Source: Geosiphon pyriformis uo1 (Eukaryota > Fungi > Glomeromycota). From it: a DNA stretch of 64,000 bases. The notes beneath the pieces are model-generated. The model was not told the origin of the DNA, did not search any database, and saw only the letters and a program-made list of their open reading frames with translations. Position numbers and translations under genes: made by a program. Every line of letters starts with the position of its first letter. Within the stretch, counting starts at the first letter, position 1. Below, one piece after another: positions 1 through 36,409 of the stretch. The stretch spans positions 937,538-1,001,537 of the forward strand of contig JAAOMT010000128.1 of assembly GCA_016748015.1 (NCBI GenBank). The letters run 5' to 3'.

Positions 1-387
1 ATTATTTTTTTTACATATTTATTTATTTTATAAAACTTAATTGTAATATTATTTAAATTATTGCTTTTAATAGAATTTTAATTACAATTTTTTAATTAAT
101 TTTGATAATACTTCTAAATAACAATATAATAAATTGGTTTTTTAATTTTTATAAATTAAATTTAACATTAATTAAATAAATTTTTTTAAATATTATTTTT
201 AAGTATTTATTATTAAAATATTAAATATCAATTTTTTGTTTTAAATTAGTATAAGTTTTTTTTTTATTAGCTTTACAAGTAAAGTTCAAACACTATCTAG
301 TGCTATACATCAAAGAAATGATCTAAACTAGGCATGAATCATGTACTTTCTACATGTAACCAGCCACTCGAGCCAATCAGAACAATA

Positions 388-3300
388 TTATACAATTATA
401 TGAACTAAAACTGAGTTACTTATGCCTGAAAAAAACAAACAAGTTTTGCAAAAGCCAAAACAAACACCAAAAGCATTAGCAATACCAAGTAATTTGACCA
501 CTCCAGCCAACAATCTTGAGGCCAAACCAGAAACTGAGATAGGAACCAAACCATTGAAGGAAATCAACCTATTCTTCTCTATAAAAGCACAATGTTTAGC
601 ATGAACTGACTAGACATTACTCTTAAAATCAAGACTAAAAGAGCACACAAATTTGACAATTTCCAAACCAGCAATCTTAAGATCCAGAAAAATGGTGACT
701 GCTTCATGAAACCAATCATTAAAAACAAAATCCTTATAAAAAGCTATGGACAAAGAGGAATTAGAAACACATGAAGACAACAGTTGTAGTATGCCCAAAG
801 AAGAATGAAAAAGACCAGAAACTGCCTTTCAGAATTCCACATAGGATTCTAACAACTAATGTTGGACAGAATCATCAATCTTGCAAGAGAATACATAATC
901 CAATGCCTTCACATTTCCACAATATAAACATAACACACTCGAATATAGTCTATTATACAGGCACTTCTAAATAGCAACTGGCAACTGGTAGTGTAAAACC
1001 TTCATAAAATAAGTACATACATTAGCCAAGAGTCTGCTGGTGAAACCAGTGGCCATATGCAAGTCAGGGTGCCAAACCAAAGATAAACAGAACCAGTTAA
1101 TCTCAGAAAGCAAACCGCCTGCCAAAAACCTGGAACCAGAACCAACCTCCCAGTGTACATGACAAACCAAATAATAAATATCACATACAAAATATCTGGA
1201 ATTGCCAAAAATCACACTACCATCAGCCATTATGAAGCATTCACCCAAGCGAAAAGGAAGATACCAATTAGAGAGAGAAGCATCATTAGCAATTGTGTTA
1301 GCATACTCATTCCCTAAAACACCAGAGTGGCTTTTAACTTTATGCTAGTTAATCTTCAAATTTTTACTGTGAATAACATTAACAATATGACAACGTTTGA
1401 CTCAACACTGATCATGAAAGTCGGAACACACCAAACTCAATTCAGACTTACAGACATCTAGCACAGATTAACTATCCAAAAACAATTTAACAGAGCCCAG
1501 TAAGAGGACACTTTCCAGAGCCAGTGCAATAGCCTGCAATTCTGCCAAAATGGATGACATCAAACCTGATACACTAATACCCAAACCCAAATTAATGTCC
1601 TTGAAAAAAGCAGTGGTACCAGCTCTACAACCAACTGTGTCCAAGTTACTAAGGGACCAATCTGTATATACTGACAAACTATCAGCACCAACTTGTGAGA
1701 AACGATTACAGACAGAAACAAAATCACTAGATTTAAAAATGTTCAAAGAACCAACACCATCCAAAACCGAAGGATGAGTAAGAGAGAAACCTTTACCATC
1801 AAGAAATACAACAGAAAGCTTAAACCACTCAGGAACAAAGCCATGAAAGTCTAATCTTTTCTAATGCTTAAAGATGTGCCAATCAAAGACAGAACCATAA
1901 CAATCATAAAGTTGATCCACAAAGACAATACCATACCATTGAAGAGAAAGGAAAAACCTGAAAAACTGTGGCTTGCCTAGAACAGCAGACATAGGGATCT
2001 CACCACAAAACCGAAAAGAATTGGCCAAAGAGCTGTCCAGGGACAAATTGCAATTAAGAAAAATACAAACCATACTTGCCAAAAAGTTATCAGAAACACT
2101 GACATAAATACACACAAGAGAACTCAATAGATAAATAGAGTGTTAGCATAGAACCTGCAAGTCATGGGACCTGTAAAAGAACAAACAACTCAAGACACTA
2201 CCTGAGTTTGCAAAACTAATAAGAGAGACCACTTTGCTCTCAGACTGAACTTGAAAGAAAAATTTCAAACCATAAAAGAAAGAATAATGAATTGTATCAC
2301 TAGGAAAATCGAGAAGTAGGCCAGATTTAAACTTCAAGCCCTTATAAATTAAAGCATTCTACTTGTTGCATGTACCAATAAAAACAAAGCTGAACTGTGT
2401 TCTATAACTAACTATAAGATAAAAAACTGCTGATACCAAATATAAGAACTGTTTATCTGAGACAGCTTTTTTTAGGACCAGATTGGTAAAAAAATGAATG
2501 TCTGAATTTGTTTTTACCAGACTAGGCTTTGAGAAATCTTCAGTTGAGAGAAAAATACCCAAATATTGATGAGATTCACCCTTTTTGGCAATGGAAATTG
2601 GCAAGCCACTGATAGAAAAAGAAGGAGTGCTGACTCTGCTATTGATAGAAATGACCACTATTTTGTTATTATTGATAGAAATATAATTTATCCAAAAAAA
2701 TTCACTTGCAACATTGAGAATATGTTGAATAACTGCCTAATTACTACCAACCCAAATTGTATCATCAATGAAAGCACCAGCAGCAAAAAAAGAAAAGAGC
2801 CCAGCCCAGGACTCAGCACAACCATTCCTTAAAATAAAATGAGAACTTAATCTATAACCACACATGTTTTCCTGTCTCTTGACTTTGCATAGCAGAGGAT
2901 CATAAAATATGCACCACAGAAAAGGAGAAAAAACTTCCCCTTGGTTCAAACCATTATATACACGATAACCATTTGTCAATCCAAAATCTGTCATCACTCT
3001 ATTAGTATAATCTCTATAAATACCACCAAAAAACTAAATGAACTTGCTACACATCTTAATCTTGACCAAACTTTTCTTGAGATGTTTCCAGCTGACTGAA
3101 TTGTATGCTTTCTAAATATCTTGCAAAACCAGTCAGAGCTCCTGATTCTTTCCCAATACATTCTTAACTACTGATCCAATTGCAAAAATAGGAGACTAAG
3201 TCGTCATACCCTTTAAAACCAAAAAATTGTCCTTGCAAAGAATGTCAAAAGTACTGTATACCAAAAAAATCCTATCAGAAAGTATCTTGGAAAGGATCTT

Positions 3301-5077
3301 ACAAGCCATCTCGATTAAAGCAATAGGGTGAGTATTCATGAGAACACCCTTCTACTCATATGGTTTAGGAATTATCAAGACCCAAGCCTTTTTCCAAGAT
3401 TTGGGCACTAATTCACAAGAAAGACAAAAGTTCAAAAATAGCAAAAGCATATCCAAAATCGACTTATTACAATGTTTCCAAAGCTTATTTGTGATACCCG
3501 AGAGACCAGCAGCTTTGCCATCAGGCAGATCGGAAATCACATCAAACAACTTACTAAACTCAACTGAACATATTACACCAGAAAAGACCTCATCAAAAAC
3601 ATAATCTAATGGCCAATATTGATAAGACCAAACATCAGAGACATTGGCTACCACATCACACTTCCTGGTTTATTCTTCTATAATAATGTCTATCTTAGAT
3701 TTAACTGAATTGGACTCCAAAATAAGCTCATCATCAACTACCAGGTAATTCAGAACCACTTTGTGGAAAGGATGCTCCAGAACACTTCTAATAGTATGAC
3801 CCTTATTTGTCTTAAAGCTTTCTATTCTCTTATCTATAGCAGATCTAATGTTTGCCTCCCTAGCCCTCAGAGATTCAGCAAGCTTGGCAGCACAATAAAA
3901 CTTTCTAGCAACAAAGAGAGCAGAATGAATGTGACCAGAGCCAGCACCAGAGTTCACAACATTCTGAACAACTGAAGCCTTAGCATTGTCCAAAGAAATC
4001 CAACATCTCATAAGAAAATCAAAATTTACAATGCTCTTTTCATGTAAAACCCTGACAATTCTAGAAACCAAGAGCTCTAACTTGTGAAATCTCAAAGATC
4101 CCTTGGTAAAAACATTATTAAAGCCCTTGAACCATTTTTTTTTAAACATCTTATCAGCTAAAAAAACCATTATTTTGCGAATAATATTCCACATCACATC
4201 CAAATCCAAAAAGCTTGCAAAGATAGCAAACTTATCTGAGAGCATTGCAGCATTAGCTGATATAGCATCTTTGAAATTGTTCTATTTATTTTTATCAGCA
4301 TCTTTGAAATCAAACCTCCACTGATCCCTATTTGCTTGCTTGCAAAAAGAATTCAACTACATATTCAAAAGTCCATCCAAATCCACAGACATAAAAACAG
4401 CATGATAGTCAATATCAAAAAATTCACCAACATCAGACACCTTGCAATCCACTATAGCATTGACCAAATTCAAAGAAATGAACAAGAAATCAATAGTCTT
4501 AGCCACATCCCAAGAGTTAGCCCATGTGAGCAATTTGACAAAAGAACTTCCATCTAAGAAATTGACCAAACCAAGATCTAGACACTTTTTGAAACTAGCA
4601 CACTTTCGGGAGCCATCTTTATTGAAGTCACCACTCAAAACCACAAACAAAAGATTCATTGACCACCTTTGCTATTACAAAATTAATATCATTAGCCTGA
4701 AAGAAATGAACAGCCATAGATGCTCCAGCATAAAGCTCCAAAATTGACACAGAAAGTTTATTCTTAAATAACAGCTTGACTGAAAGAAGCTAACCAGGTA
4801 CCTCCAAAACCTTACTAATATGACAAGCTAGAGAAGTGTTCATAATGATTGTGACACCAGTACCAAGAAAACCTTTGTCCAATCCAGATGAAAAGATCCT
4901 AACTCTATTGAATTTATCCCTAATCTAAAGCCTGTTGCTAGACCTTAGCTTTGTTTCTGTAATTATCAAAACCAAATTTCCAGAATCTCTATGCCAATGA
5001 ATAATGTTTTTCTGCTTGACAGGAACATTAATATTTTGAACATTACACATTGCAAACTTCTACACAAAGTTATTCAT
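388..5077 (-). pseudogene. LINE-A ORF2: AP endonuclease, reverse transcriptase, RNase H, C-terminal zinc knuckle (many stops)
   Basis: Fragments GDFN..TWANS..IDF (APE); GLNQGEVFSP and AFIDD (RT); VYTD..AELQAI..LDS (RNase H). Confidence 0.92.
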
Positions 5078-7023
5078 TGGGAAGTAAGAGAAGTTGATAA
5101 ACTCAAGCCAGAGCACAAACGATCCAATCTTTCCAAAACAGATTCAACTGATATCTCCAAAGCCACTATCTTGGATTCTAAACCACTCACTTTGGTGGTC
5201 AGAACTTTAAAACTACTTGAACTAAAGTCTGCAACTGAGTCTGCAACAACAACCAAAAAAGAGGGAGGAGGAGACATTAGAGTATCATTCAGAGCTATTT
5301 CTGAGTCCAAATTAGATGTAACAAATGCAAGGACAACCAGAGGAAAGATATGAGATTTGGATGCCTAAGGCATTAATTCCACAAAGCTCAATTTTTTCAT
5401 AATAACCGAAACCTGATCTGCCAAGAGCTTTAAAGAACATTCCAGAGAGGCCAATCAATCAACCAAACAGAAATCACCAAAAGAATTAAAAACCAACAAG
5501 ACAGGTTTTGCACTTGAAGATGAATCAGTACCAAAAAGATCTGACAAAACCGCATAAGAGAAAGAACCACCAGCAATTTGGGTCCAAGTTTTCCCACTGA
5601 AAAAAACTGGGTAAACAATTAGTGTCTGCTTCCTCTTATATATGTTGGCCAAATGGATCCGATCCTGAGGAGTTACCATCTGCTTACCACAAACATCAAA
5701 ATTTCCACCCAATAAACACTCTGTAGAAATATGACCAAACTGTTTGCAATAAGCACAACAGGCCAAAAAAAGGCTAGCCCAGCACAAATTCACACCTTTA
5801 AACACTAGAGTAGAACCAATAGCAGCCAATTTGAATGCTTTGTCAACAAAACACACAATTACACATTTATTATGCACATATGAATTGAGATTATGGCCAA
5901 TGAAACAAGTCTTCTTACCATATGATTTTAACAAATCAGAAAGATTATGAGCTGTAGTACCAACTGAAAAAATATAAAACAATGCCTAATGCAGATCTTT
6001 TGATACTCATGATTGTTTATTATTAATAGCTTTTACCATATGAACAGAATTTTTTCCCATAAAGACAGACCATTTAGCTACAACCAAATCAGCTACTTTA
6101 AATGACTCAAACCCCACAAAAACTTTTTGTCATAGACCAATCAAGTGCATCTTGATTGATGCAATCTTTCCAAACTTAGAAAAAACAGATTTCACAGCCG
6201 ATTTGGGAAAATCAACTGGAATCTCCTTAACAACAATTATCCAATCTGAAAGTTTGTTTATCTGTCTAACATCATCATTCACCACAATTTTCTCATGAAT
6301 TGCCAATTCCCTAGCCTTCTTTAGACTTAATTCAGACGTGAAGAAGGATCTGATAATTCCAGAAAATTTTGAGAAAGTGAAGGCTTTCCCAAAACCATCA
6401 ACTCAATAAAAAATTTTTTTAACTGAAATTAACTTATTACCATTGGTTTTTCTAGACACAGCAAACAATTCCATATTCAAAGTGAATAATTTTACTGGCT
6501 CGAAACACCATTTTTCTAGAACACATGAATCTGCAGACAGCAGCTAATTGAATCTAACAAATTTAGGTGCCAGAAGCACCAACTCAGTATCATTGTCACT
6601 TATATGTTCAAATAAAAGTTTTTTTGGAGGGTTGCCCAACACGTATGTTCGTGTGCAAGTTTTTTTTGGCATTGCTTCATCCATATTATTGTCTTCACCA
6701 GATTTAGCATAACTGGTTTCTTTAGCAACCATGTTTTCCATATTATCAACATTTGAGAGACTGCTTACATTGCTAAAAACACTGCCAACTTTGCTGTCTC
6801 AAGACATTACAGACTTAATACTGACACCACTAATATTTTCTAAGCTCAAAGAGCCAACAGATGAATCAACCACTTTACTGGCTACAGGCATCTTTGGCTT
6901 CTTAAACAATGGACTACAGAAGTACACACTATTCACACGAGCTTTTTTCTTATTACTAGACCAGGTCCCCAAACCAGCTAAACCAGTACCAGAACCACCA
7001 GCAAAAGCACTTACTGGATTTAT
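5074..7023 (-). pseudogene. LINE-A ORF1 (RRM-like, CCHC, coiled coil); start codon appears decayed to ATA
   Basis: CAYCKQFGHISTEC knuckle; homologous to LINE-B ORF1; ends SQ* overlapping the ORF2 ATG. Confidence 0.88.
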
Positions 7024-8641
7024 AGCAATGAAAAAAGGAAAGTTGGAAGAAATAATTAGAAAAGAAACAAAGAAAAAGGGAAAAAAAACTAATTAAAATT
7101 TCGATAAAATTTTTGCTCTCATCATGATCAGCGGATTGATAAGAGAAAGCTAAAAAGTTTTTTGATTTAAAATTATTAAATAAATTATGTAAATTTTCAA
7201 AATTTTTTTTTTTAAGTTTTTTTTATATTAATATTTTTTATAATATTAGCATAAAATAAGATAATTTTTACAAAAATAAGCATTAATTTAAACAAAATAT
7301 TGTTTTTGCTTTTAGCAAATAAAATATAATTATTAGTAGTTTTTTAAAATTTTTTTAACAAATTAAATATTTTATAATTGGTAATTTTATTGGTTATTTT
7401 AGTAAATATTTTTTAATATTGTATTTTTTTGGTGTTTTTTTTTCTTATTTTAGTTTGTATTATATAATAAAATTTAATTTTATTATGTAAATAATACTGT
7501 AGTCTATTTTAAATAGTATTCTTTTTTTTATTAATTATAAATAAAAATTATATATTAATATTTTAATTTAATATTTTCTTAATAATGGTTTTTTTTATAA
7601 ATAAAACATAATTTTTTGTTCTATTTATTATGTTTTTTTTAAATAATCATATTTTTATTAATATAATAGTTAAAGTAATAATAAATTGGTTTTTTATATT
7701 TTTGCTAATATATTATATATAAATAAAAGCTTTTTTTAATATATTAAATATTTTAGCTTTGATTTATATTGTTATTTATTTTTTTTATGTAATTATTATT
7801 ATTTATTTAAATTTTTTTTACTTATTTAAATTAATATAAATAATAGTTTTGTTTTTTATTATTAGTTTATAAAAGTTAATAAATTTTAAAAACTGGTAAT
7901 ATTAAGTTTTTTTGACTTTAAAGATAGATTTTTAATTGGTATTAAGTTTTTAAAAATGACTATAAATAATTAAATTATTATAGTTAATAAAAAATTTCTG
8001 TATAGATTAATTTAATATAATATTTGTTTTTATTAATTAGTTATTAATAATATTATAGTACTTTTTGTCTCCTTAATTTTATGATTATGACTAAAGCAAA
8101 GAGTAAAAAAACTGTATCTGATATTTTTTTTGAGATATCTAATAAAATTTCAACCAGAGAAGCTCTCTTTGTTATAGAAGCAACTAGGCAAAACGTTTTA
8201 GAAGCTTTTTCTTTACCTAATAATTGTAAAAAGCTGTCTTTGGTAGTTACTAAAGCAACTTCCTCATCTTTGGCTGGTTTTTACTAGTCAAAGTTCCTTC
8301 AAAAAAACACACTTGGATTAGTCCAGTGTTGTTTTCACCCCAACTAAGAGCCCAAAAGTTTTTAATAATAGACTTATAAACAAGCTAGTCTTCCTTTTTT
8401 TTGCTTCAACATCTGGTGCTGCTAGCATTATCTCTTCAAAAAAATAGTCAAAAAAAACAAAAGTTCAGAAAAATGGAAGCAGTCACTTGTTTCTGTTATT
8501 GTTACACCAATTTCTTTGTGGTTCCCAATAAGATCTTAGATGTAATCTTTATAGCATCATCCAACATATCATTTAAGATGGGCCAAGATCAACCATTGGC
8601 TGTGTTACTTAATGTAATGTTTTCTAACAGATTGTTACCAG

Positions 8642-9203
8642 TATTACAAGATGGTTTTCTTGTTATATTTAATTGCTGATATCCCATTTTAATTGCAATC
8701 AGTCTTTCGTGAGTTCCTCAATTCTATTTGTGTAATAATGTCACTGTTATACTGAAGGCTTTCTTTTTAATGTTGTGATGTAAGTTATTCTTCAATTCCT
8801 GATTGTTGTGTGTGTTTATGTACTCCTTCTCAGAGGCTGAACTGAAATCTACCCACTGTCTGGGGTCTTTTCTGAGGCTATCCTTGCAATTGCCTGATGT
8901 GTTTCTCTAATCTAGAAACACAGAATATTAATGGTCTTTAGTGCTTTTTCTAATTCTCACAATAAAGCTTCTGTCTCTTATACACATCTTGTAATACTTT
9001 CTTTTTAATATTTCAACCTGGTGTTTGCTGCTATCACCAGTTGGTGTTGGCTGCTATTGTGAACTGATACTTGCCACTATTGCGAGATGGTATTTGCTAC
9101 TATATTAATCATTACCTTTCTAAGATTATTACTGTGCTATATTATGATTGAATAGTTTGTATTATTTTTATGATTCTTTTTGCTAAATTTTTAAACCGTA
9201 ACA
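8642..9203 (-). repeat. G1 3' LTR (562 bp; 332 bp replaced by adapter sequence)
   Basis: Direct repeat of 17136-18010 except for the segment corresponding to 17465-17796. Confidence 0.95.
8971..8989 (+). other. Tn5 mosaic end / Nextera adapter (assembly artefact)
   Basis: Exact CTGTCTCTTATACACATCT, located precisely where the partner LTR has 332 bp of other sequence. Confidence 0.95.
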
Positions 9204-9218
9204 TTATCCTCTCCTTTC
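9204..9218 (-). promoter_or_regulatory. G1 polypurine tract
   Basis: GAAAGGAGAGGATAA immediately before the 3' LTR TGTTAC. Confidence 0.85.
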
Positions 9219-9885
9219 AAAATTGAGCTCCATCAAAATCAAAGTTAATTTCTTTATTAAATTCTAAGTTACTATAGTGGTTCAATACTGTGTTATTAAT
9301 TTGTTGTTGTAATTCTTGAAATTGCGAATTGGTAAGTTGTCCAATACTGTTGGTTGTTATTATGTTCATGGTTGGGTCCAACAATAATTTGTGACAGTTT
9401 TCAAATGCTTTGAAAATTCTGTAAACTGTTTTTGAATGGAATGTAGTGTTGGTTTTTCCAATGAAAGGTTCTAATAGTTGGATAGTTGTTTTGTCAAACA
9501 CTCTAGTTGAGTCTTTTGAGTATAATATTTGTATGTTCAAGTGCTTTCTTAGTTGATAATAACAGTAATTAATTGGAAATTTCGTTTTTAAGTTGCTAAA
9601 TGTGTCTGGTGTTAATTCACTTATTTCTATTTTTTCTATTATTAATGTATTGCCCAATGCTATTTCTAATTTTTCAATAACTTTGCTAATAAATTTGTTG
9701 TTATATTTGACAATATTATATGATTCAAAATTATGTTCTTTTTTTGTTTTTGGATTTTCTATTGTTCTTTTTATGTATGTTATCTTGGAGCTATTAACTG
9801 TGATTTCCAGATTGGATTTTAATTGTTGTAAGCTTTCAACTAATTGTTGAGTTATATTGTTGATGTTTTCTGGAATAAGTATCAT
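9217..9885 (-). CDS. G1 ORF3, 222 aa, unknown function (intact frame)
   Basis: ATG to stop open; homologues at the same position in G2, G3, G4; ends FDGAQF* within the PPT. Confidence 0.8.
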   Translation of the reverse strand: MILIPENINNITQQLVESLQQLKSNLEITVNSSKITYIKRTIENPKTKKEHNFESYNIVKYNNKFISKVIEKLEIALGNTLIIEKIEISELTPDTFSNLKTKFPINYCYYQLRKHLNIQILYSKDSTRVFDKTTIQLLEPFIGKTNTTFHSKTVYRIFKAFENCHKLLLDPTMNIITTNSIGQLTNSQFQELQQQINNTVLNHYSNLEFNKEINFDFDGAQF

Positions 9886-9969
9886 TGTTTTAATTTTGAC
9901 TGCTATTTTGGAATCTTTTGCATGCGTTTTTATGGTTGTTAAATCATTTTTGCCATGATCTAAAATTAA

Positions 9970-11349
9970 TTATCTTTTTGAATAATGTTCAATTAAAACT
10001 ATTGGTTCTAAATCTCATGGAATTTGTTCTGGTAAAATTAAAGGTAATTGTGTTCCAATTCTGGGTGTTTTTGTTGTTATTACTGGTTTACTGTAATAGA
10101 ATTTCAGCCAGTTACCATGTGCTGCTTTTTTTAATATTTTATCATCTAGTCTTAGCTTGTATGCTCCATTTCCAAGTATTTCGTGAATATAAAATGGTCC
10201 ATCCCACTTGTGATCAAATTTTCCACTCCACTGTTTTTCCATTTTTGTACGATACAACAATACTTTATCTCCAATTTTGTAGCTAATTATATTATCTGGT
10301 AACTGGTTATCATGTCTCACTTTTTGTTGTTCTTGTGATTGTTCAATATTTTGTGCTGCTTTTTTTCTTTTGTTTTCTAAAGTTCTCATTAATTTATATG
10401 TTCTTCTAAGTAGTGTTTCTTGGAATGTTGCTTCCATAATAGTGTCACTTGGATAAGTTGGGATAATAATTTCAACTGGTAATGTGGCTTTTCTTCCATA
10501 AACTAGTTCAAATGGTGTGAATTGTATAGTATCTTGTTTTACTGTTCTATATGCTAGTAGTACTGCTGGTATGAACAAATCCCATTCTTTTTCATGTTTG
10601 TTACTAATTTTCACTAGTAATTCACATAATGTGCGATTAAATCTTTCAACTAATCCATTTGTTTGAGGGTGGTATGGTGATAATAGTGGTCGCTTGATTC
10701 CAAATTTTTGGCTAAGTTCTTTTAAAGTGCTGTTTACGAAGTGTGTGTCTTGATCTGATAGCAATTCTTGTGGACATCTATGTCAGCAAATTAAGTTTTC
10801 ATGTACAAATTGAGCTATGGAAATAGCATCAGCTGTTTTAATAGCTCTAGTTTCTGGCCATTTGGTGAGATAGTCCATGGCTACTGCAATATAATGGTTG
10901 TTTCTTGTTGTTATTGGTAAGGGTCCAACTAAATCAATTCCGATTCTGTCAAATGGCTGTCCAACTTTTATTGGTCTTAATAATTCCATTGTTTTTGCTC
11001 CTCCTCTTCGTTGGCATGGGTCACAATTTCTTATGTATTGGATTATGTCTGAACTCATTTTTGGCCAATAGTAACAGCTAGTTGCACATTGGATGGTTGC
11101 TGTTTTTTCAAAATGGCCTGAATGAATATCTGAGTGCATGTTAAATAAAATAGTTTTTTTTTCATCCGTGGTTATAACTCTTAATAGATTATCTGGATTT
11201 TGTCAATTCTGATAATAAAGTATGTGATTTTGGATGAAATAGTGTTTTGCTAATTTTTGGAGCTTAATTAGCTCTTTTACTGGCATTTTTTCATCTATTT
11301 GTAGTGTTTCTAAGTATTGGCTGAGGTTTTTGTAAAGGTGGTTGTTCAT
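9970..11349 (-). pseudogene. G1 integrase as separate ORF (HHCC, DDE, GPF/SH3-like)
   Basis: MNN start at 11349; HSD..GH..CDPC; IDLVGP, SDQ, NGLVERFN; WDGPF. Confidence 0.9.
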
Positions 11350-11378
11350 TGTTGTTGTGGCGGGTGGGTTGGTGATTT

Positions 11379-14300
11379 TTATGTGTGTCTCATTCTTGAC
11401 AAACAGTCAGCATTAGCATTTTTGGTACCTTCTTTGTATTTGATAATATAATTGTATGGTGCTAACATTTGTGACTATTTGGTGTATTTTTTTTTAGCGC
11501 TTTTTTGTTATTTAATTAGACCAGACCTCTATGATCTGTCATAATCTCAAAGGGTTGGTACCGTAAATATGTGTTAAAGTGAACACAACTCCAGACTACT
11601 GCTAAGCATTTAAGTTTATGTGCTGCGTAGTTTTGTTCTGCCATACTGAGACTTCTACTGACATAAGCAATTACACATTCTCTTTCATTATTATTTTTTT
11701 GTGACAGAATGGCTTTAAGTCCAGTTCTAGAGACATCTGTGGCCAAAATGAATTTCTTGTTGAAATTCGGATAGATCATTATTGGTGATTCAATGAACTT
11801 TTGTCTAAGGTACTCAAAAGCTTTTTGTTGTGCTTCAGTCTATTTAAACTTCACATTTTTGGATAGTAGGTAATTAAGAGGTTTGGCGATGTTTGAAAAG
11901 TTTTCTACAAAGTGGTGGTAGTAAAATGCGAGTCCTAAAAAGCTTCTAACTTCTGAAATGTTTCGAAGTACTGGAAAATTTTTCACTTTGTCTATTTTTG
12001 ATAGATCTGGTTTTATTCCATTTTTTCCAACTACATGTCCTAAAAATGCTAGCTCATTTTTCCCAAAGAAACATTTTTCTAGATTTAGTTTAAGTCTAGC
12101 GTGTCTCAATCTCTCAAAAACTTGTTGTAAATATTGGAGATGATCCGTGAATTTTGACGAGAAAACATTTGTATCATCCAAGTAGACAACAACGGATTGC
12201 CACAGGATTCTGGAGTAAATTACGTCTATTAGTATTTGGAATGTCGCGAGAGTATTTGTTAATCCAAATGGCATTACATTGAACTCATAATTGCCATTTT
12301 GTGTTGTAAATGCTGTTTTATGCCTGTCCTTTGGGTCTATTTCCACTTGCCAGTACCCACTGGTCAAGTCTAGTGTAGAAAACCATTTTGCTCCTCCAAA
12401 AATGTCGAAGATTTCATTAATTAACAGTATTGAATATGAGTCTTCGGTTGTTTTGCTGTTTAGTTTGCAATAATCGATGCAAAATCTAATTTTTCTGTTC
12501 TTTTTCCTTACTAAAACAACTGGTGAGGACTATGGGCTCATTGATAGTTGTATTATTCCTTTTTCCAACATGCTTTGGACTTCTTCTCTGATAAAATTAT
12601 GCTCCATTGGTGGGACATGGTAAGCACGTTGTTTTTCAGATCTGGCATCTCCAGTGGAGATTTGGTGTTGAACCAAGTTGGTTCTTCTAAATTTGCCATT
12701 TCGTGAAAATATATCAGAGTATTTTAAAATTAATGCTTTTAATTGTCACTGTTAGTCAGGATCCATTGTTCTAATGTTTAATTTGGCCAATTCTTCTGGT
12801 GTAAATTGATAGCATTCTAATAGTTGTTGCCAATTTATTGAAGTAAGTTCACAGTAGAGGGCGATTTCTGGGAAATTTGGAATTTCTTGTGGTGTTGACG
12901 TGTTTTCTAGCTCTGTTCTAAGGTATCCAATGATGGTATCTTCCAGAATGTAGATGGGTTCTTCTATGGTGTTTGCGATAGGAATTTTTATCCATTGAGC
13001 TTTATTAGCTGGAATAAAAAGATTAGTAAGTTCTATGAGAAACTGTTGGCAAGTTTCTGAATAGGGCTCAAATATTAGATCTTTTTCTTTAATTGTCCTT
13101 TTTATTTTTATTTCTGATTTTCCATATAGTAGAAGCATAATGGACCGCTTATTTTTAATTACTTCACTTTTTTCCTCTATTGTTTTAGTGAAATTCACTT
13201 CAATTCCTTTTCCTGTCGATCCAAAACCAAAAGTTTCTCTTGTTGTTTGTGACAATTCCTCACGATTTTCCACTGACATGAATTTCCCAATTTTTAGCAA
13301 TGGTAGGAAAATTGCTTGTGCAATCTTTTCCTTAGATTCAATGATATAAAGCTTTTCTGAATTGTTCTGTTGCAAAACCATCAAATTTTCAGTGTATCCG
13401 GAGTCAATTACTCCTCCTTGAACACTTATTCCTTTTTTTGCGAGGCTTGATCGTGACGCTATTTGAACCATTATTCCTGGCGGAATTTCAACCACTATTT
13501 TTAGGTTGATTTTGGTGATGCTCCTGGATGGTAACATTGTGGATTGGTCTTCTGGATAACATAGATCGAATTCGGCATTGGTTGGATGGGCTCTTTTGGG
13601 TATTATTCCTAAGTGCCTATTGTCAAAGTATTGGATATTGGTCACCTGTTCTAGGTTGGTATAGGCTACAAATTTTTCTGACTCGGGACCGTCAGGTAAG
13701 TCTTGTTGATTTATTAATTGATTTTGAGACTGCTGATTCTCAATTTCCATTTTTTTTTCTAAGCCCCTTTTGTCTTGACACTCTTCACAGCACTGATTTT
13801 GGCATGAGATGAGACAGTTTTCACAGAAGTAAGTGTTGATTTGGGCGAGGTATTGTTTTTGCTCTTGTCGAGTGGGGCATAGTTGTTGGTAGTAGTCCTG
13901 GAATTCATCCACTGGGTCGAACATGTTGTAGCTGGTGACTTCGTCGGCTACTTTGGCTGACTCTTTCCAACGTCGTATTTCTTCAGCAGTTCCTCTTTCT
14001 ACTTTGGCTTGTGCGGTGTTGTACAACTCGTCCTCGTCATGTGGGTAGTGCTGTAGTCTTTTTAACACTCTGTTGAACACTGTTTTGAATGGCGTTCCTC
14101 CTCTTACCCAGTCACAGATGAAGATCATGTATTGGCAAGTTGCGTCACATGTTTCTCCTCTGCCTGATATGTCATTCCAGTCGCACCCTCTTGGTAACAG
14201 TTCTCCACAAGCGAGGCACGGTTTCTCGTCCCATTTTCTGTGTCTTTCTGGGTAACCGTATTTTTCTTTATTACAATGGTTACAATAGTAGTGGGTGGAG

Positions 14301-17053
14301 TTTCTTGGGTCTTCATTTGGTGTGCTGCACGCAGTCATAGACGAGAGTTTCTTCTTGCAAACTGAGCATTCTAGCTTTGGTCTGCGTCGCTGGTGGTTTC
14401 TTTGTGAACTTACCTGGTTTCATTCGGATCTTTCTTCGCTGGTTCACGTTGGTATGGCTGGTAGTCCTGTTTTTTGGTCATCAGCCCAAGAGAGCTGATA
14501 GGTTTTGATGGCTGGTAGTGCTGGATTTTTCTCAAATTCAAAGGTAGGTCTTTAGTTGGCACTGGGTTTTTGGAAGTGGCCACAGATGGCTGGAATTTTG
14601 GCCTGGTGGTCATTATAATTGATCAGAAGCTCTTGAGTGGTCCAGTCTAGGGTGGTGTTGGCTTTTGTTAGCCAGTCATTCCCTACTAACACTTGATATT
14701 GTGTAGCATCCATTACTAATACTTTTGTAGGTATTACTATGCTGTTAATTTCGAAAGGAAATAAGTCAATTTCATCATGAGGCAGCTTTGTACTTCCATT
14801 GGCTGTTATGATTTGGGACGTCACAGCACGATTAACTTTGAAACTCAGTTGGTTTATTAGTTGAAGCGTTATGATGCTTTTAGCAGATCCGCTGTCTAAG
14901 ATAAGTTTGATTGGGGTATTGTTTACAGTGGCTTCCGTATACATAGCAGTGATTGAACATTTTTCGTCCAATGCTGCTCTACTGAACATAGCCTTGTTTT
15001 TTTCTAATTCAAAAGGAAAAATAGCTGTGAGGCTGCTATCTTCGGTGGCAACTGCTGGTGGTATTGTCTGGCTCAATTTGTTGCAGAAATTCTTGGTTCT
15101 GTTTATGTTTCTACCATCATTATTTCCGATGATCAGATTTTCTGGTATATTAAGATAAGTTTGTTGATAATTTTGGTAGTTTGGATTGGTTTGCTGATTG
15201 GTTTTGGCGCGGTTTGGATTCCTCTGGACCAATGCATTCTGGTTCTATATAAGCTGATTTCGGGCCTCAGGACGCCAATTCAGGTTGGCTATCATGGGCT
15301 GTTGCTGGTAAGCTCCTTAATTTTGATATGTGGTGGGATATTGGTGTGGTATTGGTGTGTACTGGTTTCTGGACATTTGGAGTGGCGTGTAGTAATTATT
15401 TTTATGTGCTTCTTGCATCATTTGCGTTCAACATTAACTAATTAAATGTCCTACATATTAGCAAAAATGGCAGGTGCGTGTTTCTGTTCTGAATTCCTGG
15501 CATGACAAGTGATTATTTCGACTGTTGCTGACTTCCTGGCTGTGTCTTTGGGGTGGTTAGTATGTATTTTTTCTTGGATCCAGGATGAGATAACTTTCTA
15601 TTTTCTTAGAGAGTTCCTCCCCTAATTGCATTACTCTTTTCTCTAATGTTTCTGTCTTATTTTCCTCCATTACCATGTTAACTATTTGACTATGGTTAGC
15701 TTCTTTTTCAGCCAATTCAAGGGCTCTGGCGAGTGTAACGGCTTCTGGTAAGGAATTAGGGTGGGCAGGGCATACTCTTCCTAAAATGCTGCTTTTTAAT
15801 CCTCTAATAAACTGATTTAAAACCTGAAGATCAGTGTAGTATCCTTGTTCAATTGCTTCAATCTGATGGCAAATTCGATTTAATTGAGCAAGGTATTGGG
15901 TGACAGTTTCACTGGTATTTTGCTTGATAGTATTGAATTCATTCTGTAGTTGGATTACGGTGTTTGGGTCGCTAAAATACTCCAGGAGTGCATTTTTAAA
16001 TTTGGCAAAGCTCGTAAGTTTTGTTTTCAGGCTTTGATACCACGAGTCAGCTGTGTCTTTTAGGAAGAAAAGTAATGTTTGAATTGCTCTTTGGTCATTC
16101 CAGTTATTTGTCTGGATGGCTTTTTGTGCTTCTCTGAGCCATGTGTGCACGTCCGTTTCTTTTTCCTCTTCTAAGAAATCTGTTAGTCTTGCAATGTATA
16201 GTGTGGTCATTTCGTTGCTGTTTTTTGCTGGTGGGCTTATTGGTCTAAGAAGAGATGGGATGATATTTTCTTGAACATTCCTAAAGGTGGCTTTCCTTAT
16301 ATCCAGTTTTTTCTCTTGATTATGAGTTTCTTGGTTTCTGGACTGGCTGATTGTTTTTTCACTGGTCTCTTTTTTGGATTCCGATTCAGACTCCTCTTTA
16401 CGGTTTTTAAACTCTGTTCTAAATTTTGGCTGAAAAAGAGGGTTTTGGAATAGTGATGAATATCCTCCTGTAATTGATATGTCTCCCCAGTTATGTTGTT
16501 TATCAGTATAACTAGGAGTTCTTGGCATTTGTGAAGTTGATGATGATACAGCTCCTAATGGAATTTGTATCTTATTTTCTGGTAAAAAATGGTATGATTT
16601 ATCTTCTGGTGAATAAATACATTGTTTTTTTATTGATTGAGTGACAGTTTTTTTTGGTGTTTGAGCTGGTGTTCCTAGTTTTTGCTGGTTACTTTCCTGA
16701 TTAGTTTCTAAATTTTCTTTGGTTTTGTTGACACGTTCCCTAGTGTTTCCTGTAGATATTGAAAAATTTTTGTTGGTGTATTGCTCAATTTCTCGATGGA
16801 TTTTAACAATAGTTGCGGCTATTACTGCTACTTCTTTTGTAGTGTATTGTGATAATTTTCTATACAATCCAAGTTTTGCATTGTGTGGTTCTTCTTTCTT
16901 TCCTATATGATAATTTATTCTAGTGTTGATATAATAAGTGAGGGCAGATTCTGCTGGACAACACTCTTCTGGTAATCCAAGATCACTTTGATTTTGTGTG
17001 TAAATAGCATGGCAGAATTCAAGAACAGTAAGATTAGGGGTTTTTGTCACCAC
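11379..17053 (-). pseudogene. G1 polyprotein Gag-PR-Cys-rich-dUTPase-RT-RNase H
   Basis: Fragments 15557-17053, 14552-15232 (LILDSGS), 12752-14338, 11840-12367 (VYLDD) and 11516-11779 (ATD..YAAH) share one frame; one frameshift near the end. Confidence 0.93.
13208..13620 (-). other. dUTPase domain in G1 polyprotein
   Basis: Five trimeric-dUTPase motifs: AEFDL, RSS, GGVIDSGY, KIAQ, R..FGFGSTG. Confidence 0.92.
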
Positions 17054-17115
17054 TTTTGTCTCTTCCTTTTTAGCAATGAATTATTGCTAATTATTATTTT
17101 CTTTTTGATTTTCTT

Positions 17116-17133
17116 TCCTCATAGGGTTCACCA
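17116..17133 (-). promoter_or_regulatory. G1 primer binding site TGGTGAACCCTATGAGGA (tRNA unassigned)
   Basis: Starts TGG, 2 nt (TT) after the LTR end CA. Confidence 0.8.
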
Positions 17134-17135
17134 AA

Positions 17136-18010
17136 TGTTACAGAATAGTTTTCTTGTTATATTTAATTGCTGATATCCCGTTTTAATTGCAATCAGTCTT
17201 TTGTGAGTTCCTCAATTCTATTTGTGTAATAATGTCACTATTATACTGAAGGCTTTTTTTTTAATGTTGTGATGTAAGTTATTCTTCAATTCCTGATTGT
17301 TGTGTGTGTTTATGTACTCCTTCTCAAAGGCTGAACTGAAATCTACCCACTGTTTGGGGTCTTCTCTGAGGCTATCCTTGCAATTGCCTGATGTGTTTCT
17401 CTAAACTAGAAACACAGAATGTTAATGGTCTTTAGCGCTTTTTCTAATTTTTACAATAAAGCTTTTATCAATTAGTAACAACGTGAATAATCTTGATCAA
17501 GGATTATTCTTCCAAGAAATTCAGTTGATGAATGATAGTTTCATTCAATAAATAATACAAGTAAGTTTCTTAATACTTTGGATTGTGATAATTCAGTTTT
17601 AAATATTTTTTTTTTATTTCTTTTTGATTTAAAGGTTTCTTGGGATATTTAATTTGGAAGTATGATTTAAAGTAGAGTTTGTTGAATAAAATTGGATCTA
17701 TTGCTTGATAAGTTATGATTTTTATTACTTGATTTTTTTTCCCAATATTAAAATTACTGTATATATACATGTTTGTAGTTCTATGAGAAAACACTTTGTA
17801 ATACTTTCTTTTTGATATTTCAACCTGGTGTTTGCTGCTATCACCAGTTGGTGTTGGCTGCTATTGTGAACTGATGCTTGCCACTATTGCGAGATGGTAT
17901 TTGCTACTATATTAATCATTACCTTTCTAAGATTATTATTGCGCTATATTATGATTGAATAGTTTGTATTATTTTTATGATTCTTTTTGCTAAATTTTTA
18001 AACCATAACA
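17136..18010 (-). repeat. G1 5' LTR (875 bp)
   Basis: Direct repeat with 8642-9203; ~23-nt tandem repeats at 17826-17910; TATA-like at ~17757-17768. Confidence 0.95.
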
Positions 18011-19952
18011 CCAGTTTTAGAAACAAAACAATTATCTCCTGTGGTATCACCTATTCTTGAGAACTGGACTAACCAAATAAAAACTGAATTATCTCCTTCT
18101 CTGGTTTCTGGTGCTGCCACTAGTAATGCTTGGGAAATTATTACTAGTCATCAAAGATTTGCTGAGTGAATAGCCTCCACTTTGGTGTCTGATGCTATTT
18201 TTAAGATCAAATTGGTTTATATTAAGGCTGTTTTTCAGTTAATACATGGTTTCTTGGATGTAAAGTCAATATTAAAAAACAATATAAAGCTGTTTTATAT
18301 GGAGTTTGTTTTTCAAGTGTCTTTGGAAACTGCATTTTTGGTTGAGCTTACAAGTTTTGTACATTTGGCCACTCTCAAAATTGCCAAGTCTTTGGTAGTT
18401 TCTGAGTTTGGTTCCCTTTCTGCTGCTGTTGTACTATATGATGTGCCCTTAAGTGTGCCTGCAGCTAATATTAAGACAGTTCTTAGTGTGTTTGGTGATA
18501 TCACTTATGTTGTGCTGAAGCCTACTGGCATTTGGCAGTATATAATGGTTTATTTTAAAAAATTAGATTCTGCTGTGTTTGCTTTGAATCATTGATCAGT
18601 TTTGGTAAGCAAGAATAATATTAGAATTTTTTTTCTAGTAAATTAAAATAAGACTATTTTGTTTTATAATAGGTTTAAGGCCAAGTTAATTAATCTTTTT
18701 TCTGGATGCACAGCTTTTGAAATTATTAATATGATTTCTTAAGTTGGTAGTCGGACATGTTTTATCTCTTGTTTTCTTAAGTCTGATTATTGTTTTCAGT
18801 TTGCTCTGATTATATTTAGTTCCCAAGCTGATTTGGATTCTACTATTGTTAAAACTGGTACACTGAGAAAATACCATATTTGGTGGGAAACTCCTGGTTG
18901 TCAATATTGTTTCAAGTGTCAAGAGCTAAACCATTTGATTGTGGATTGTAAAGTTTCTTTACCTCTTTCTCTCAAGTTTTCCAAGATGTTTATACCATGT
19001 TTTGTTGATCTTAAGTCTTATGCCAAGGTTTTTGCTCTCTGAATTTCCACTTCTGTTACTTTTTGCCTCTTTTCCAGTTTTTGTTAGTAATTCTTTGGTG
19101 CTGTCTTGATTGTTTTCTTTGAAATCTGATTTAATTAAGCTTTCTGCTTTGGTTGAGTCTATTTTTAAGTCTATTGGCTCTTTAGTTACAAATTTAAACA
19201 GTTTATTAATGGTAATTTGGTTTCAAGTAGTGCTTTTGGTCTTAGAATCAATGAAGTTTTGGTGCATATGAGTTCTTTTAGTAGGACTGTTAATAAACTA
19301 GGAAGAGAGGTGATCTTTTTGAAAAAAGAATGCTGCATAGAAGATATTGATATGTCTGATAATTTGGAATATCTGATTGGTGTAGATGATAATACATTTT
19401 CTAACTTGATGTTTCTTTGGGCTCATAAGTCTGTTTATATCAAAACTAATCCTTTAAAAACAGCTGAATAGCTGGTTGGATTGGTTCCTAATAGTGTTAT
19501 TTTGTTTAGTATTGTTCAGAAAATGTTTTTTTTGAGTAAGTTTTTTTCTAAGGCTTTAACATAGTGTGTCCTTAATTGGTCTAAGTGACTAATCACATGT
19601 AGAAAATACATGATTAGCACCTAGTTTAGATTACTTAGTTTGATGTATTGTACTGAATAGTTTTTGGGCTGTATTCATTAATTAATATAAAAAAAAGTTA
19701 TTATTTATTAATAATTAATAGTATGTAGTATCTATAATTAATATTTTTATAAATATAATAATTTTATTATATAATAGCTTGATATTTTTATTTGTTATTA
19801 TAATTTAAGATATTATAACATAATTAACTATAAAATCTAATTAGTTTATTACTAAAATATTATAATACTTTTAATAAATTTATTATTTAAAATAAGTTTT
19901 ATTAATATATTGTTTATTTTTGTTTTTGTATATATAATAATAATTAAAATAT

Positions 19953-20837
19953 TGTTATTCAAGTAGAAAAACCAATTTAAAAACCATTAAAAAACATGAT
20001 TAATATATAATAATATAAAAAAACATAATAATATAAAATAATACAGAATAATACAAAAAAATACAAAATAATTAGTTATAATTTAGAATAATTAATTATA
20101 GCATAAAAAAATAAAGCAATAACAGAAATAGTAAGCAATAGCTAATAATAATAAGCAATTAAAAACAATTTTATATAACTAAAAAATATGTATAAAAATA
20201 AGTAGTTTTAGTAAAAAAAAAACCAAACAAAAAAACAAGAATTATTTTTCTTTTTATATTTTAATTTTAAATTAATCTTATTTTATATATATTTATAAAA
20301 AAATTTAATGAAATTTTATTATTTAATATATATATATATGATTTCTATATTCTGATTATTATAATCAAATTAATTGTTTCTATTATTTTTGTTTCTATTA
20401 AATACAATTAACATTAATGTATTTAAAACTTTAATAATTAAAACAATCATTTTTAATTATAATAATTAACAAAATACTAATTTTTTTTTATTTCTTTGAT
20501 TTTTATTTCTTTTTTATTTTGTAAAACAACAACAACATTAAAAATCAACTGTTTAAAAATAGACTTTGTAATAATCTGGTAAAAAAAAAAAACTTCTTTT
20601 AGATTTGTACTTATTAATTCAGAGAAAAATACAACTAAAACTGCTTAATTAAAGAAATCAAAACTCTGTGCTTTATAATAAAAAAACTCTATAAGTATAA
20701 CTTAAAACAAGAAAATTTTCAAAAACTAATAATTGACTTAATTAAAAAAATTATTATATTAATACTTAATTAGCTTTTATTATCAAATTACAAGCACCAA
20801 AAATTACAATTTTATTCTACCAAGTTTATTTATAACA
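19953..20837 (+). mobile_element. Strongly AT-eroded solo LTR related to the G3 LTR
   Basis: TGTTA..TAACA ends with ATAT TSD on both sides; blocks aaaatcaactgttt..aatagactt, aaactctgtgc.ttataa and aagcaccaaa..ccaagttta match the G3 LTR. Confidence 0.82.
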
Positions 20838-20991
20838 ATATTTTTTATTTAATATTATTTTATTAATATATATTTTTATTTTTTTTTAGTTTAAAAAAAA
20901 TAATTATAAAACTATTATTTTTTGTAATAATAGCTAATAATATTGTTTAACTTAAGTTTTAGTTTTAAAAATAATTTCTAGTTTTAAATAT

Positions 20992-21805
20992 TGTTACTTA
21001 TAAAAAAAATATATAAAGAAAAATAGTAGAAAAACAGATAAACCAATAGGAGAGTAGTAGTTAGCACATGAACACATTGCTCAGCAATGTGAGCATTGCT
21101 CAAGAAATTATAGCACATTGCTCAGGAATGTAAACAATCTCATAGAACCTAAATTATATATATAGCAAGAGTGTTAAAAGCAAAAAAGACAGAATTATTA
21201 CCAAGACTTTTCCATTATCATATCTCTATTAGAATTATCAATATCAATAAATAATTATTCACCATCTAAATTATTTTTTCCACTATTAACACTTTATGTT
21301 GATAATATTGAATACTTGATTATACTAGAACAATAGTTTTTAATTATGACTATTAACAGAATACTAACTTTCATTGTCTTGGCTTATTTTTTTTATTTTA
21401 TTTTTTTTATTTTATTTTTATTTTTTTTATTGTATACTAATTGATTAAAGATTAAGCACTAAGTTATTAACATTAGAATATAGTACTGATAAAAGACCCA
21501 GGAATAAGAGTAGACACTCAGATTTGGGAATAGCTTACCAGGAGATTGCTGGCCATCATGCTGAGAAAAAAATTAACAGAATTGCAATTCTGGAAAGTAA
21601 CAGACAACAAACCACATTAACCTGAGAGTTGATACTTAAACATCACTAAAAAAACCATACTTGAATCTCTGTTCATTATACAAAGAACTTAATTAAAACC
21701 TTTAGACAACTAAAATCTTTAAATAATTATCAATGAGATTAGTTATTAAGCACCAAGTTACAGGTTTGTTATTTGATTTGAGACCCCAAATAATTACCTG
21801 TAACA
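20992..21805 (+). mobile_element. Solo LTR of the G4 family
   Basis: Reverse-complement similarity to 58132-58871 (e.g. ttatttgatttgagaccccaaataat); TGTTAC..GTAACA ends; flanks ATAT/ACAT. Confidence 0.88.
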
Positions 21806-27509: not shown

Positions 27510-28494
27510 TGTTACCAGACGAAATTAGAGATATTATTTAGTATGAAAATTATCTTATAAATCCTATTATTAATTAGCATATATTATCATTTTAAATTAT
27601 TACTTATTACATTAGCAAAATGTCTGAAATTATTATTTAAATTAATAACCCAATTTGTACACAAACACAAATGTAATCTAATTGCAATGATCAATCATGC
27701 AATACTCCAAACTATGTAATATTCAAAAGTTCGCCAAAATTTGTAGAAATTTGCTGAAATAATTGATAGTTCACCGAAATATCTAATAGTTTGCAGAAAT
27801 AACTTGTAGTTTACCGAAATGTATCTTTAGTTCAGCGAAATTGTAGAAAATAGCAAAGTTCAAGTTCATAGAATAGTGTTACAACAAGTTGTATAAAAAA
27901 AGAGCATCTCTCTTCGAGAAAATGTATCTTACTTTAAATTTATCACTTAGAACCATTTTTACATACACAAAAAGAAATAAAAATCAAATAATTCAAAAAA
28001 ACCAAAATTTTTAATTATTACACTTGAAAAATCCTCAAAACCCAACTAATGTTTTGAAATTGATTAGCTACCAATTTCAGTAAACTGTTAGTGACTCCAA
28101 GCCTGGATAAAAAACGTTTCTCTTGACAAAATTCTATTTCTTTTATATTTTTTTTATTTTTCTTTTATTTTTTATTATTACAATCATTAGGGTAACTTAC
28201 AGATGAGATTCCTGTAGAAAAGTTGACTTTCACAGCAAAGTAACTACACATTTTTTGTGAGCTCCCAGACGAGCAATTCCTAGGAAAGAGTTGACGTTTA
28301 CTACAACGTAACTACATAAAGTAACTGGCACAGAATTGGCCATTCCACTTATAAGCCCAGTAAGTTCAAATTATAGGAGATAATTTGAAGATAAATTCAA
28401 TTACTGGAGGTCTAACTACTTCCTGGAAACGTGAATTCACAACAAACAGACATTAAAAACATTCAAGAAAAGAGACCAAAAACCTCCAGTAACA
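27510..28494 (+). repeat. G2 5' LTR
   Basis: Repeat of 36410-37394; ~20-nt TAGTTCRCCGAAAT-type repeats at 27727-27842; TATAAAA at ~27892. Confidence 0.96.
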
Positions 28495-28496
28495 TT

Positions 28497-28513
28497 TGGT
28501 GCTCTCCCATGGA
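28497..28513 (+). promoter_or_regulatory. G2 primer binding site TGGTGCTCTC...
   Basis: TGG 2 nt after the LTR end; first 8 nt identical to the G3 PBS. Confidence 0.75.
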
Positions 28514-28540
28514 AATAACACAGCAACAACAAAATTTAAA

Positions 28541-36398: not shown

Positions 36399-36409
36399 GG
36401 AGGAAGTTA

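Follow-up and report, generated by a model that had tools for sequence, protein, structure and literature searches.

The stretch analysed here, a 64,000-nucleotide window of the Geosiphon pyriformis uo1 genome (contig JAAOMT010000128.1, positions 937,538 to 1,001,537 of the forward strand), carries four long terminal repeat (LTR) retrotransposons of Ty3/Gypsy type, E1 to E4, in which the pol frame ends at a stop codon after RNase H and the integrase follows as a separate open reading frame (ORF), itself followed by a third, ORF3. We regard this split architecture as practically certain. Retroviruses and LTR retrotransposons bring integrase into the particle as part of Pol, from which it is normally cleaved. 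E4 is incomplete and extends past the right end of the window. The elements and their parts are the following:

8642 to 18010, minus strand: E1, full-length decayed Ty3/Gypsy LTR retrotransposon
17136 to 18010 and 8642 to 9203, minus strand: 5' and 3' LTR of E1, the latter with an internal deletion
8638 to 8641 and 18011 to 18014: flanks of E1, 4-bp target site duplication (TSD) CCAG
11379 to 17080, minus strand: E1 frame for gag, protease, dUTPase, reverse transcriptase (RT) and RNase H, ending in LSR-MRHT-stop and interrupted by decay stops
11350 to 11378, minus strand: E1 spacer, 29 nt, A+C 93%, without ATG and without AG
9970 to 11349, minus strand: E1 stand-alone integrase ORF with N-terminal YPYY-type region, HHCC, DDE and GPF/SH3, and three internal decay stops
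9217 to 9885, minus strand: E1 ORF3, 222 amino acids (aa), open, a member of a conserved lineage-specific helical family
27510 to 37394, plus strand: E2, full-length, LTRs at 27510-28494 and 36410-37394 (93% identical)
27506 to 27509 and 37395 to 37398: flanks of E2, TSD GTGG, the insertion site being a LINE-like element
28751 to 34159, plus strand: E2 gag, protease, dUTPase, RT and RNase H in a single frame ending in LSR-IRQD-stop
34160 to 34210, plus strand: E2 spacer, 51 nt, A+C 90%, in frame and without further stop
34211 to 35596, plus strand: E2 stand-alone integrase ORF, with decay stops inside
35738 to 36426, plus strand: E2 ORF3 remnant (E 2e-10 against the ORF3 of relative L007)
46851 to 57009, minus strand: E3, full-length, LTRs at 55899-57009 and 46851-47945 (89% identical)
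46847 to 46850 and 57010 to 57013: flanks of E3, TTGG/TCAG
50142 to 50154, minus strand: E3 pol stop and 10-nt spacer
48774 to 50141, minus strand: E3 stand-alone integrase ORF, with decay stops inside
47962 to 48693, minus strand: E3 ORF3 remnant (E 8e-26)
60957 to 60989, minus strand: E4 pol stop and 30-nt spacer
59581 to 60956, minus strand: E4 stand-alone integrase ORF, with a frameshift near its start and decay stops
58894 to 59520, minus strand: E4 ORF3 remnant (E 4e-27)

The four pol stops (TAA at 11379-11381 in E1, TAG at 34157-34159 in E2, TAA at 50152-50154 in E3 and TAA at 60987-60989 in E4) all lie four codons past the L-S-R motif of RNase H, the R codon of E4 having itself decayed to a stop. 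An ATG-AAY follows at 11349, 34211, 50141 and 60956, after spacers of 29, 51, 10 and 30 nt whose offsets are 2, 0, 1 and 0 modulo 3; the spacer of E4 is in frame but holds one additional stop. From this ATG to the codon preceding the HSD motif there are 210, 210, 210 and 209 nt, so that the restart ATG stands 71 codons before the zinc-finger His. These junction coordinates, spacer lengths and distances had been given by an initial annotation made from the letters alone, and all were correct on re-reading. Pairwise identity among the four copies is 50-56% in RT-RNase H and 52-63% in integrase, and we therefore treat them as separate families.

Decay is heavy in every one of the four: the codons examined, 4579 in number, contain 35 stops (0.76% per codon). 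One might accordingly blame the pol stops on assembly errors or on decay that these dead copies have in common. Yet at this rate decay would place a stop in the same codon of three more copies with a probability of ~4e-7, and intact relatives in independent assemblies are equally split. Furthermore, the stop is fixed across contigs of the E2 family: in 280 contigs of run X1 aligned to the junction, the TAG has no variant reaching 3%, and the ATG has a single one, G>A, at ~3%. These contigs represent copies of the family and not an independent host, as X1 may stem from the window's own source; runs X2 and X3 contained almost nothing of this stretch. Decay as the cause, already dismissed by that annotation, is thus ruled out, and the chance we leave to it is negligible.

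Relatives of the window elements

The DNA context of the integrase was read in 80 metagenome loci and two loci from a viral collection, 47 of these 82 being left out because they gave no upstream RNase H match (short contigs or long pol tails). A stop lies between RNase H and integrase in all 33 metagenome loci that hold both domains (L005/L006 and L002/L051 being near-duplicates), and the integrase ORF is unbroken for at least 380 aa in 27 of them. Intact copies reading continuously from RNase H into integrase, which the initial annotation had named as evidence against its claim, were thus not found among the metagenome loci; the two viral-collection loci, distant at 28-34% identity, are fused.

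Protein searches were made from both sides of the junction. With the E2 integrase as query (X at the break), 1131 proteins of 172-548 aa matched at E 1e-20 or better, and of the 120 listed, 85 begin with a Met that precedes the first zinc-finger His by exactly 71 residues, while 17 start at an internal Met 54 residues before it and 18 elsewhere; Met1 is invariant in a 38-row alignment. Because of its protein-length limit, this list alone does not prove that the integrase stands alone, and as an integrase-sized search is biased in this way we also searched with the RT-RNase H of E2 against proteins of 736-2100 aa (120 listed of 6138 matches, 112 with a coverage of at least 85%). Among these 112 listed matches, integrase is carried by none of the 34 with at least 51% identity, by 8 of 32 at 49-51% and by 39 of 46 below 49%, and the 32 of those 34 that have a parsed motif end 1-30 aa after LSR (mode 3).

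A search for longer, integrase-bearing proteins placed three eukaryotic gene models (P0122-P0124) and two true fusions (P0125 and P0126) in its top five. The fusions have an integrase identity of 40%, and the distance from LSR to His in P0125 is 76 residues, versus 4 + 71 in the window. P0122-P0124 omit the start of the integrase along with the end of RNase H (P0124 omits the entire RT-RNase H), and three further Rhizophagus clarus models omit the same two parts by another join. In all, five models from R. clarus and Cetraspora (P0122, P0123, P0479, P0482 and P0489) join RNase H to integrase, by three different joins and with loss of the final RNase H motif in each, and for these reasons they read as predictor artefacts, a rare real splice being the less likely alternative. 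The named hosts in the close integrase clusters are Rhizophagus irregularis, R. clarus, Cetraspora pellucida, Entrophospora sp. and Paraglomus brasilianum. Judging from these sequences, the close named hosts of split integrases, root-symbiotic fungi, span the Glomeromycota, and the split layout is real and widespread among these fungi.

Some relatives depart from the window elements in other respects. L021, L026, L032, L037, L042 and L065 have pol tails of ~240-590 aa after RNase H, several with a common A-x-L-D-stop-like ending, and no Pfam family reached the cut-off in the tails of the four relatives scanned. In L065, gag-protease (505-3360) and RT-RNase H (3394-6705) are also separate ORFs, and some relatives may accordingly have four cistrons or a gag/pol frameshift. 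L003, L006, L010, L013 and L030 show a circularly permuted order, integrase followed by gag-like ORFs (plus RT-RNase H in L010), an order to be expected from LTR circles or from multicopy elements whose LTRs were collapsed.

The initial annotation had further proposed a gag-pol / int / orf3 layout. It holds in the window, where all four elements have an ORF3 homologue, and in relatives, but not throughout: among the 35 loci with a complete integrase end and at least 600 nt downstream, ORF3 was found in 23, most of them members of the training alignment that match by construction, and not found in 12. The protein is ~120-270 aa long, and the model of the L021 protein is predicted to be all-helical (pLDDT 95). 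No Pfam family reached the cut-off in 24 members; Atlas was blank for the E1 protein and gave only unnamed clusters, with weak recognition, for that of L021; and a Foldseek search of PDB and BFVD gave no match reaching E 0.001 (best VIA Z 4.8), a result that proves neither a new fold nor a lack of relatives. An envelope glycoprotein, as in Errantivirus-like Gypsy elements, is ruled out by the length, the all-helical L021 model and the absence of a Pfam family in the 24 members. Around ORF3 we also noted that in E1 a five-codon upstream ORF (9940-9956, minus strand) separates the end of the integrase from the start of ORF3. In L034 the usual place of ORF3, 43 nt past the integrase, is taken by an ORF with a NUDIX domain (1945-2886, E 1e-10). 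Two R. irregularis gene models of 558 aa (P0352 and P0353) have integrase joined directly to ORF3, as read in P0352, and the same ORF3, 141 aa long, is annotated elsewhere as a host hypothetical protein in Rhizophagus (P0342 and its cluster mates).

Possible routes to a separate integrase

The junctions of the 33 split loci and of E1 to E4 form a set of 37, which are not independent since the loci are related. Their spacers range from -20 to +943 nt and fall in all three frames, the offsets being distributed 13/13/11, and 9 of the 13 in-frame spacers contain further stops. A single readthrough or frameshift mechanism therefore cannot serve all of them, and what the initial annotation had argued in this respect from four copies extends to the whole set. 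Two features mark the integrase ATG as a genuine start. Its -3 position is a purine in 34 of 37 junctions, a state shared by 123 of the 192 Met codons inside ORFs (p 1e-4, for related loci), and ATGs are depleted in 24 spacers of 3-170 nt, two near-duplicates having been dropped (8 observed versus 17.3 expected from composition, p 0.011). At some junctions stop and start overlap. Between RNase H and integrase the overlaps are -1 (TAATG, L018), -8, -14 (twice) and -20, with one more junction at +2 nt, and between integrase and ORF3 we found -1, -4 (ATGA), -8, -11, -20 (twice), -25 and +3, among others. In the passages of the literature on which we draw here and below, UAAUG and AUGA overlaps are described as marks of reinitiation after long ORFs (PMC10275272), and UAAUG coupling as functioning in a fungus at 2.5-4.4% (PMC2699510). 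Since the ATG of an overlap is inside pol, stop and restart need no additional element at such a junction.

We consider it somewhat better than an even bet that the integrase would be made mainly by termination at the pol stop and reinitiation on the full-length genomic RNA. Ribosomes would finish gag-pol at its stop and restart at the integrase ATG, giving low, sub-stoichiometric amounts of integrase, produced on the very RNA that is being packaged. The enzyme might then enter the particle through cis binding to this RNA or through contact with Gag or Pol, as foamy virus Pol must, with an RNA hairpin before the ATG as a candidate packaging site in one subclade, and ORF3 would likely be expressed through a second restart.

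Several observations weigh against reinitiation. Coupling through a termination upstream ribosomal binding site (TURBS) acts within ~30 nt (PMC10275272), and stop and ATG are at most 30 nt apart in 12 of the 37 junctions, the spacer being longer in the other 25. Five spacers measure 365-943 nt and contain 7-27 ATGs (L020, L035, L043, L065 and L071); in L035 the length probably reflects decay and a premature stop, and the other four are hard to explain by simple scanning. A TURBS-like UGGGA motif occurs at 3 of the 37 junctions. The hairpin follows the stop, where a TURBS would precede it, and the window copies have none. On account of the rarity of the motif and of the few junctions within range, TURBS-dependent reinitiation in particular was rejected.

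The hairpin is a ~40-nt motif between pol stop and integrase ATG, common to 16 regions chosen by eye among 49 listed upstream regions:

L021:5194-5232, L032:4465-4501 and 18 further loci: two-helix motif with covariation, immediately before the integrase ATG

RNAalifold gave 12 pairs, 8 of them with changes on both sides; 95.8% of cells pair, a value reached by none of 500 shuffles (a test inflated by relatedness), and slid controls gave 22-52%. The model built on it has 20 matches in 83 sources, each directly before an integrase start and none in the window; four of these lie outside the training set, two of the four being near-copies of training loci. Eight hairpin-carrying loci had no Rfam match at E up to 1, and a degenerate pattern of the hairpin had no exact match in viral contigs and prokaryotic genomes. 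The motif could recruit ribosomes, throttle initiation or bind integrase for packaging; for the latter idea, lentiviral integrase bound to an RNA stem-loop (title of PDB 9rmu) offers an analogy only.

Reinitiation has to be weighed against three other routes. The foremost of them is a subgenomic RNA carrying integrase and ORF3 together, which could arise from a promoter within pol or from a splice that links the 5' leader to an acceptor site ahead of the integrase ATG. It would suit the strong Kozak context and the ATG-poor leaders, it tolerates long, ATG-rich spacers, and it has a precedent in the spliced Pol mRNA without Gag of foamy viruses (PMC3705302). However, in 14 of the 37 junctions, E1 and E4 included, no YAG lies between the last upstream ATG and the integrase ATG, which makes one conserved splice acceptor unlikely, and the stop/start overlaps at both junctions would be superfluous on a separate mRNA. 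We hold this route to be unlikely, while giving it appreciable weight. Internal initiation, in which an RNA element before the ATG would attract ribosomes regardless of pol translation, appears improbable: in most of its 20 loci a few bases separate the end of the 12-pair structure, with its 8 pairs changed on both sides, from the ATG, but the structure is limited to one subclade, ~40 nt is small for an internal ribosome entry site, and spacers without the motif showed no folding beyond that of shuffles.

That a fused RT-RNase H-integrase is still produced, through readthrough, frameshifting or an in-frame splice from RNase H to integrase, is very improbable in our estimation. Four of the 37 junctions are indeed in frame without a further stop (E2, L002, L007 and L052), the five NCBI models from R. 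clarus and Cetraspora link the two domains, and in P0125 a closely related integrase is truly fused. Against this stand the spread of the offsets and the additional stops within most in-frame spacers, as well as the gene models themselves, whose three joins drop the C-terminal RNase H motif as artefacts of prediction would. A GT between SR and stop is present in only 10 of 29 short-tailed junctions and in none of E1 to E4, so that a splice sparing the whole RNase H is not general, and a fused protein would leave the conserved Met with its Kozak context unexplained.

Origin of the split and what it implies

The solved Ty3 RT chain (4OL8) terminates three residues beyond the aligned ISR, and the pol stop thus falls at the normal end of RT. 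Residues 1-60 of the integrase fold confidently (pLDDT 88-95), in a model that resembles the prototype foamy virus (PFV) and Ty3 integrases. With the stop at the end of the Ty3 RT construct and no integrase sequence lost, the split appears to have replaced the protease cut between RT and integrase. This points to fission in place at the RT/integrase cleavage site as the simplest reading, favoured over capture of a Ginger-type integrase. The comparison of RT and integrase trees suggested by the initial annotation, with re-acquisition of the integrase in mind, did not reject such a capture.

In quick trees the split set forms one side of a branch, with support of 88 for RT-RNase H and 58 for integrase and with similar fused neighbours in both, and within the split set RT and integrase distances correlate (rho 0.67, over 136 non-independent pairs). 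For fused elements, the distances to that set show no such correlation between the RT and integrase trees (rho 0.13, p 0.41), which lends no support to co-descent outside the group. A careful RT tree shows no single split clade (three changes, and a single clade in 0% of 200 bootstrap trees) and places the fused P0125 and P0126 in an unresolved fork among split groups; one split clade is nevertheless not rejected in the RT topology test by the approximately unbiased criterion (p-AU 0.36). A quick integrase tree, a stand-in for a mixture model, requires four changes of the split label.

Four RT-less proteins, labelled Ginger-like from their domain content in a tree set without a named Ginger1 reference, fall outside the split set in free integrase trees; a joint clade of split and Ginger-like integrases is absent from the free tree but not rejected (p-AU 0.22), and nesting of Ginger-like proteins in a split subgroup has a p-AU of 0.08. 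The target sites offer a lead only: the duplications CCAG, GTGG and TTGG/TCAG of E1 to E3 could be CpG-decayed forms of NCGG, like the CCGG of Ginger1, from three sites. The two flanks of E3, TTGG and TCAG, are both single CpG-decay products of TCGG, a hint of a CG-centred target as in Ginger1.

The existence of a large natural group without a link between Pol and integrase implies that the rule of integrase within Pol is not obligatory. Both the translation route and the packaging of the free integrase are inferred here, and they raise testable questions: by what means a fungus translates a downstream ORF when the one before it is as long as ~1,800 codons, and by what path free integrase reaches the particle or the cDNA. 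The group is also a candidate step from a Gypsy integrase to the Ginger1 transposase, a step left open in passages of Bao et al. (PMC2836005). Gene and repeat annotation of arbuscular mycorrhizal (AM) fungi is affected as well, predictors bridging RNase H and integrase by likely false introns and copies of ORF3 being filed as Rhizophagus host hypothetical proteins. A far bolder reading would see in these elements an ancient, Glomeromycota-wide polycistronic class with two serial restarts, an ORF3 of new fold and a hairpin-loaded integrase, which would have been the source of Ginger1/GIN transposons; the last part draws on the shared start region, the YPYY motif and the 4-bp CG-centred target. 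Taken as a whole we think it improbable.

Surroundings, classification and known systems

The remainder of the window is rich in other repeats. Three decayed LINE-like elements with endonuclease and RNase H Pfam matches and ~70% mutual identity occupy 1-6600 (minus strand), 24150-27509 together with 37395-40400 (plus strand) and 42060-46850 (plus strand); E2 sits within one of them and E3 adjoins the end of another. A 10-nt tandem repeat array is present in each LTR of E3 (47671-47935 and 56706-56970). The region 20000-24000 is strongly AT-rich (14-18% GC) with local repeats, and 20986-21806 is a 67% inverted match to 58131-58877, which adjoins the 3' end of E4. No tRNA genes were found in the window.

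By their sequence, E1 to E4 and their relatives are Ty3/Gypsy elements in all tested respects except for the integrase standing apart from Pol. The LTR pairs of E1-E3 are 89-98% identical and have TGTTA...TAACA ends (one E1 end is mutated) and 4-bp flanks, and E1 has sites resembling a primer binding site (PBS) and a polypurine tract (PPT). In E1, gag to RNase H is one frame until a single frameshift near 11500, shortly before the end of RNase H. Pfam recovers the Gypsy order (Retrotrans_gag, Ty3_capsid, aspartic protease, RVT_1, RT_RNaseH, Integrase_H2C2, rve), the gag/capsid and protease matches coming from E1 and E2, while the four elements taken together supply those to dUTPase, RT, RNase H and integrase. 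Ty3 is the best solved relative of both RT-RNase H and integrase, an SH3_Tf2-1 domain is present, the GPF motif is intact in E1, and trees group both proteins with fused Gypsy elements. In the usual description of Ty3/Gypsy, integrase is part of the Pol polyprotein (PMC12440569); here a stop precedes it in every window element (4 of 4) and every locus (33 of 33), and we therefore file these elements as a Ty3/Gypsy variant and not as ordinary members.

We found no description of the split layout in the literature searched, nor any report of reinitiation for an LTR-retrotransposon integrase; Repbase, subscription journals and supplements lay outside the search and could hold a description. The layout goes unmentioned in passages of AM-fungal transposable element papers (PMC8647823, PMC11952901) and in those of reviews (PMC2774666, PMC6431247). 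Canonical Ty3/Gypsy elements (Metaviridae; Ty3) share the TG...CA LTRs, the short TSD, the PBS-like and PPT-like sites, the gag-protease-RT-RNase H-integrase order and the HHCC-DDE-GPF integrase; unlike in these, the integrase here comes after a stop and starts at an ATG of its own, with a conserved ORF3 that is not Env next in line. The dUTPase between protease and RT recalls some fungal and rotifer elements (PMC6431247), and the YPYY-motif Gypsy group (Athila/Tat-related, Gypsy-1-I_RO, DGLT-A; Bao et al. 2010, PMC2836005) comprises close known relatives. Troyka (PMC12440569), as far as passages of its description go, is likewise an unusual LTR lineage formerly placed under Gypsy, but has CG...CG termini, a 3-bp TSD and mostly a single Gag-Pol with integrase, lacks the GPF/Y motif and is found in aquatic animals. 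Membership in Troyka is ruled out by the TG...CA-type ends and 4-bp flanks found here.

The best structural matches of the window-type integrase are those of PFV and Ty3, the foamy virus fold being similar at E 9e-26. In foamy viruses (Spumaretrovirinae), the whole Pol (protease-RT-integrase) is separate and made from a spliced mRNA, and integrase is still cleaved from it. Here, by contrast, integrase alone is separate. What the two have in common is an enzyme made without Gag, which needs an encapsidation route of its own (PMC3705302).

SART1 and LINE-1 ORF2 are known cases of termination-reinitiation after long ORFs. The UAAUG of Cryphonectria hypovirus 1 (PMC2699510) and the TURBS of caliciviruses and influenza B virus (PMC10275272) resemble the present junctions in their adjacent or overlapping stop and start and in the low output expected of the downstream enzyme; in contrast to them, spacer length varies widely here and no TURBS motif is conserved. 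Ginger1 and GIN-type genes (PMC2836005, in the passages concerned) share with these elements a stand-alone Gypsy-like integrase, the YPYY region before the zinc finger, TGTNR termini and a 4-bp TSD, which is CCGG/CCGT in Ginger1 versus CCAG, GTGG and TTGG/TCAG here, compatible with CpG-decayed NCGG (n=3). Membership in Ginger1 is ruled out by the presence of LTRs and RT and by an integrase that ends ~30-40 aa after the SH3 domain: whereas Ginger1 has terminal inverted repeats, no RT and a C-terminal OTU/Ulp1/PHD domain, the elements described here have LTRs, gag and RT-RNase H.

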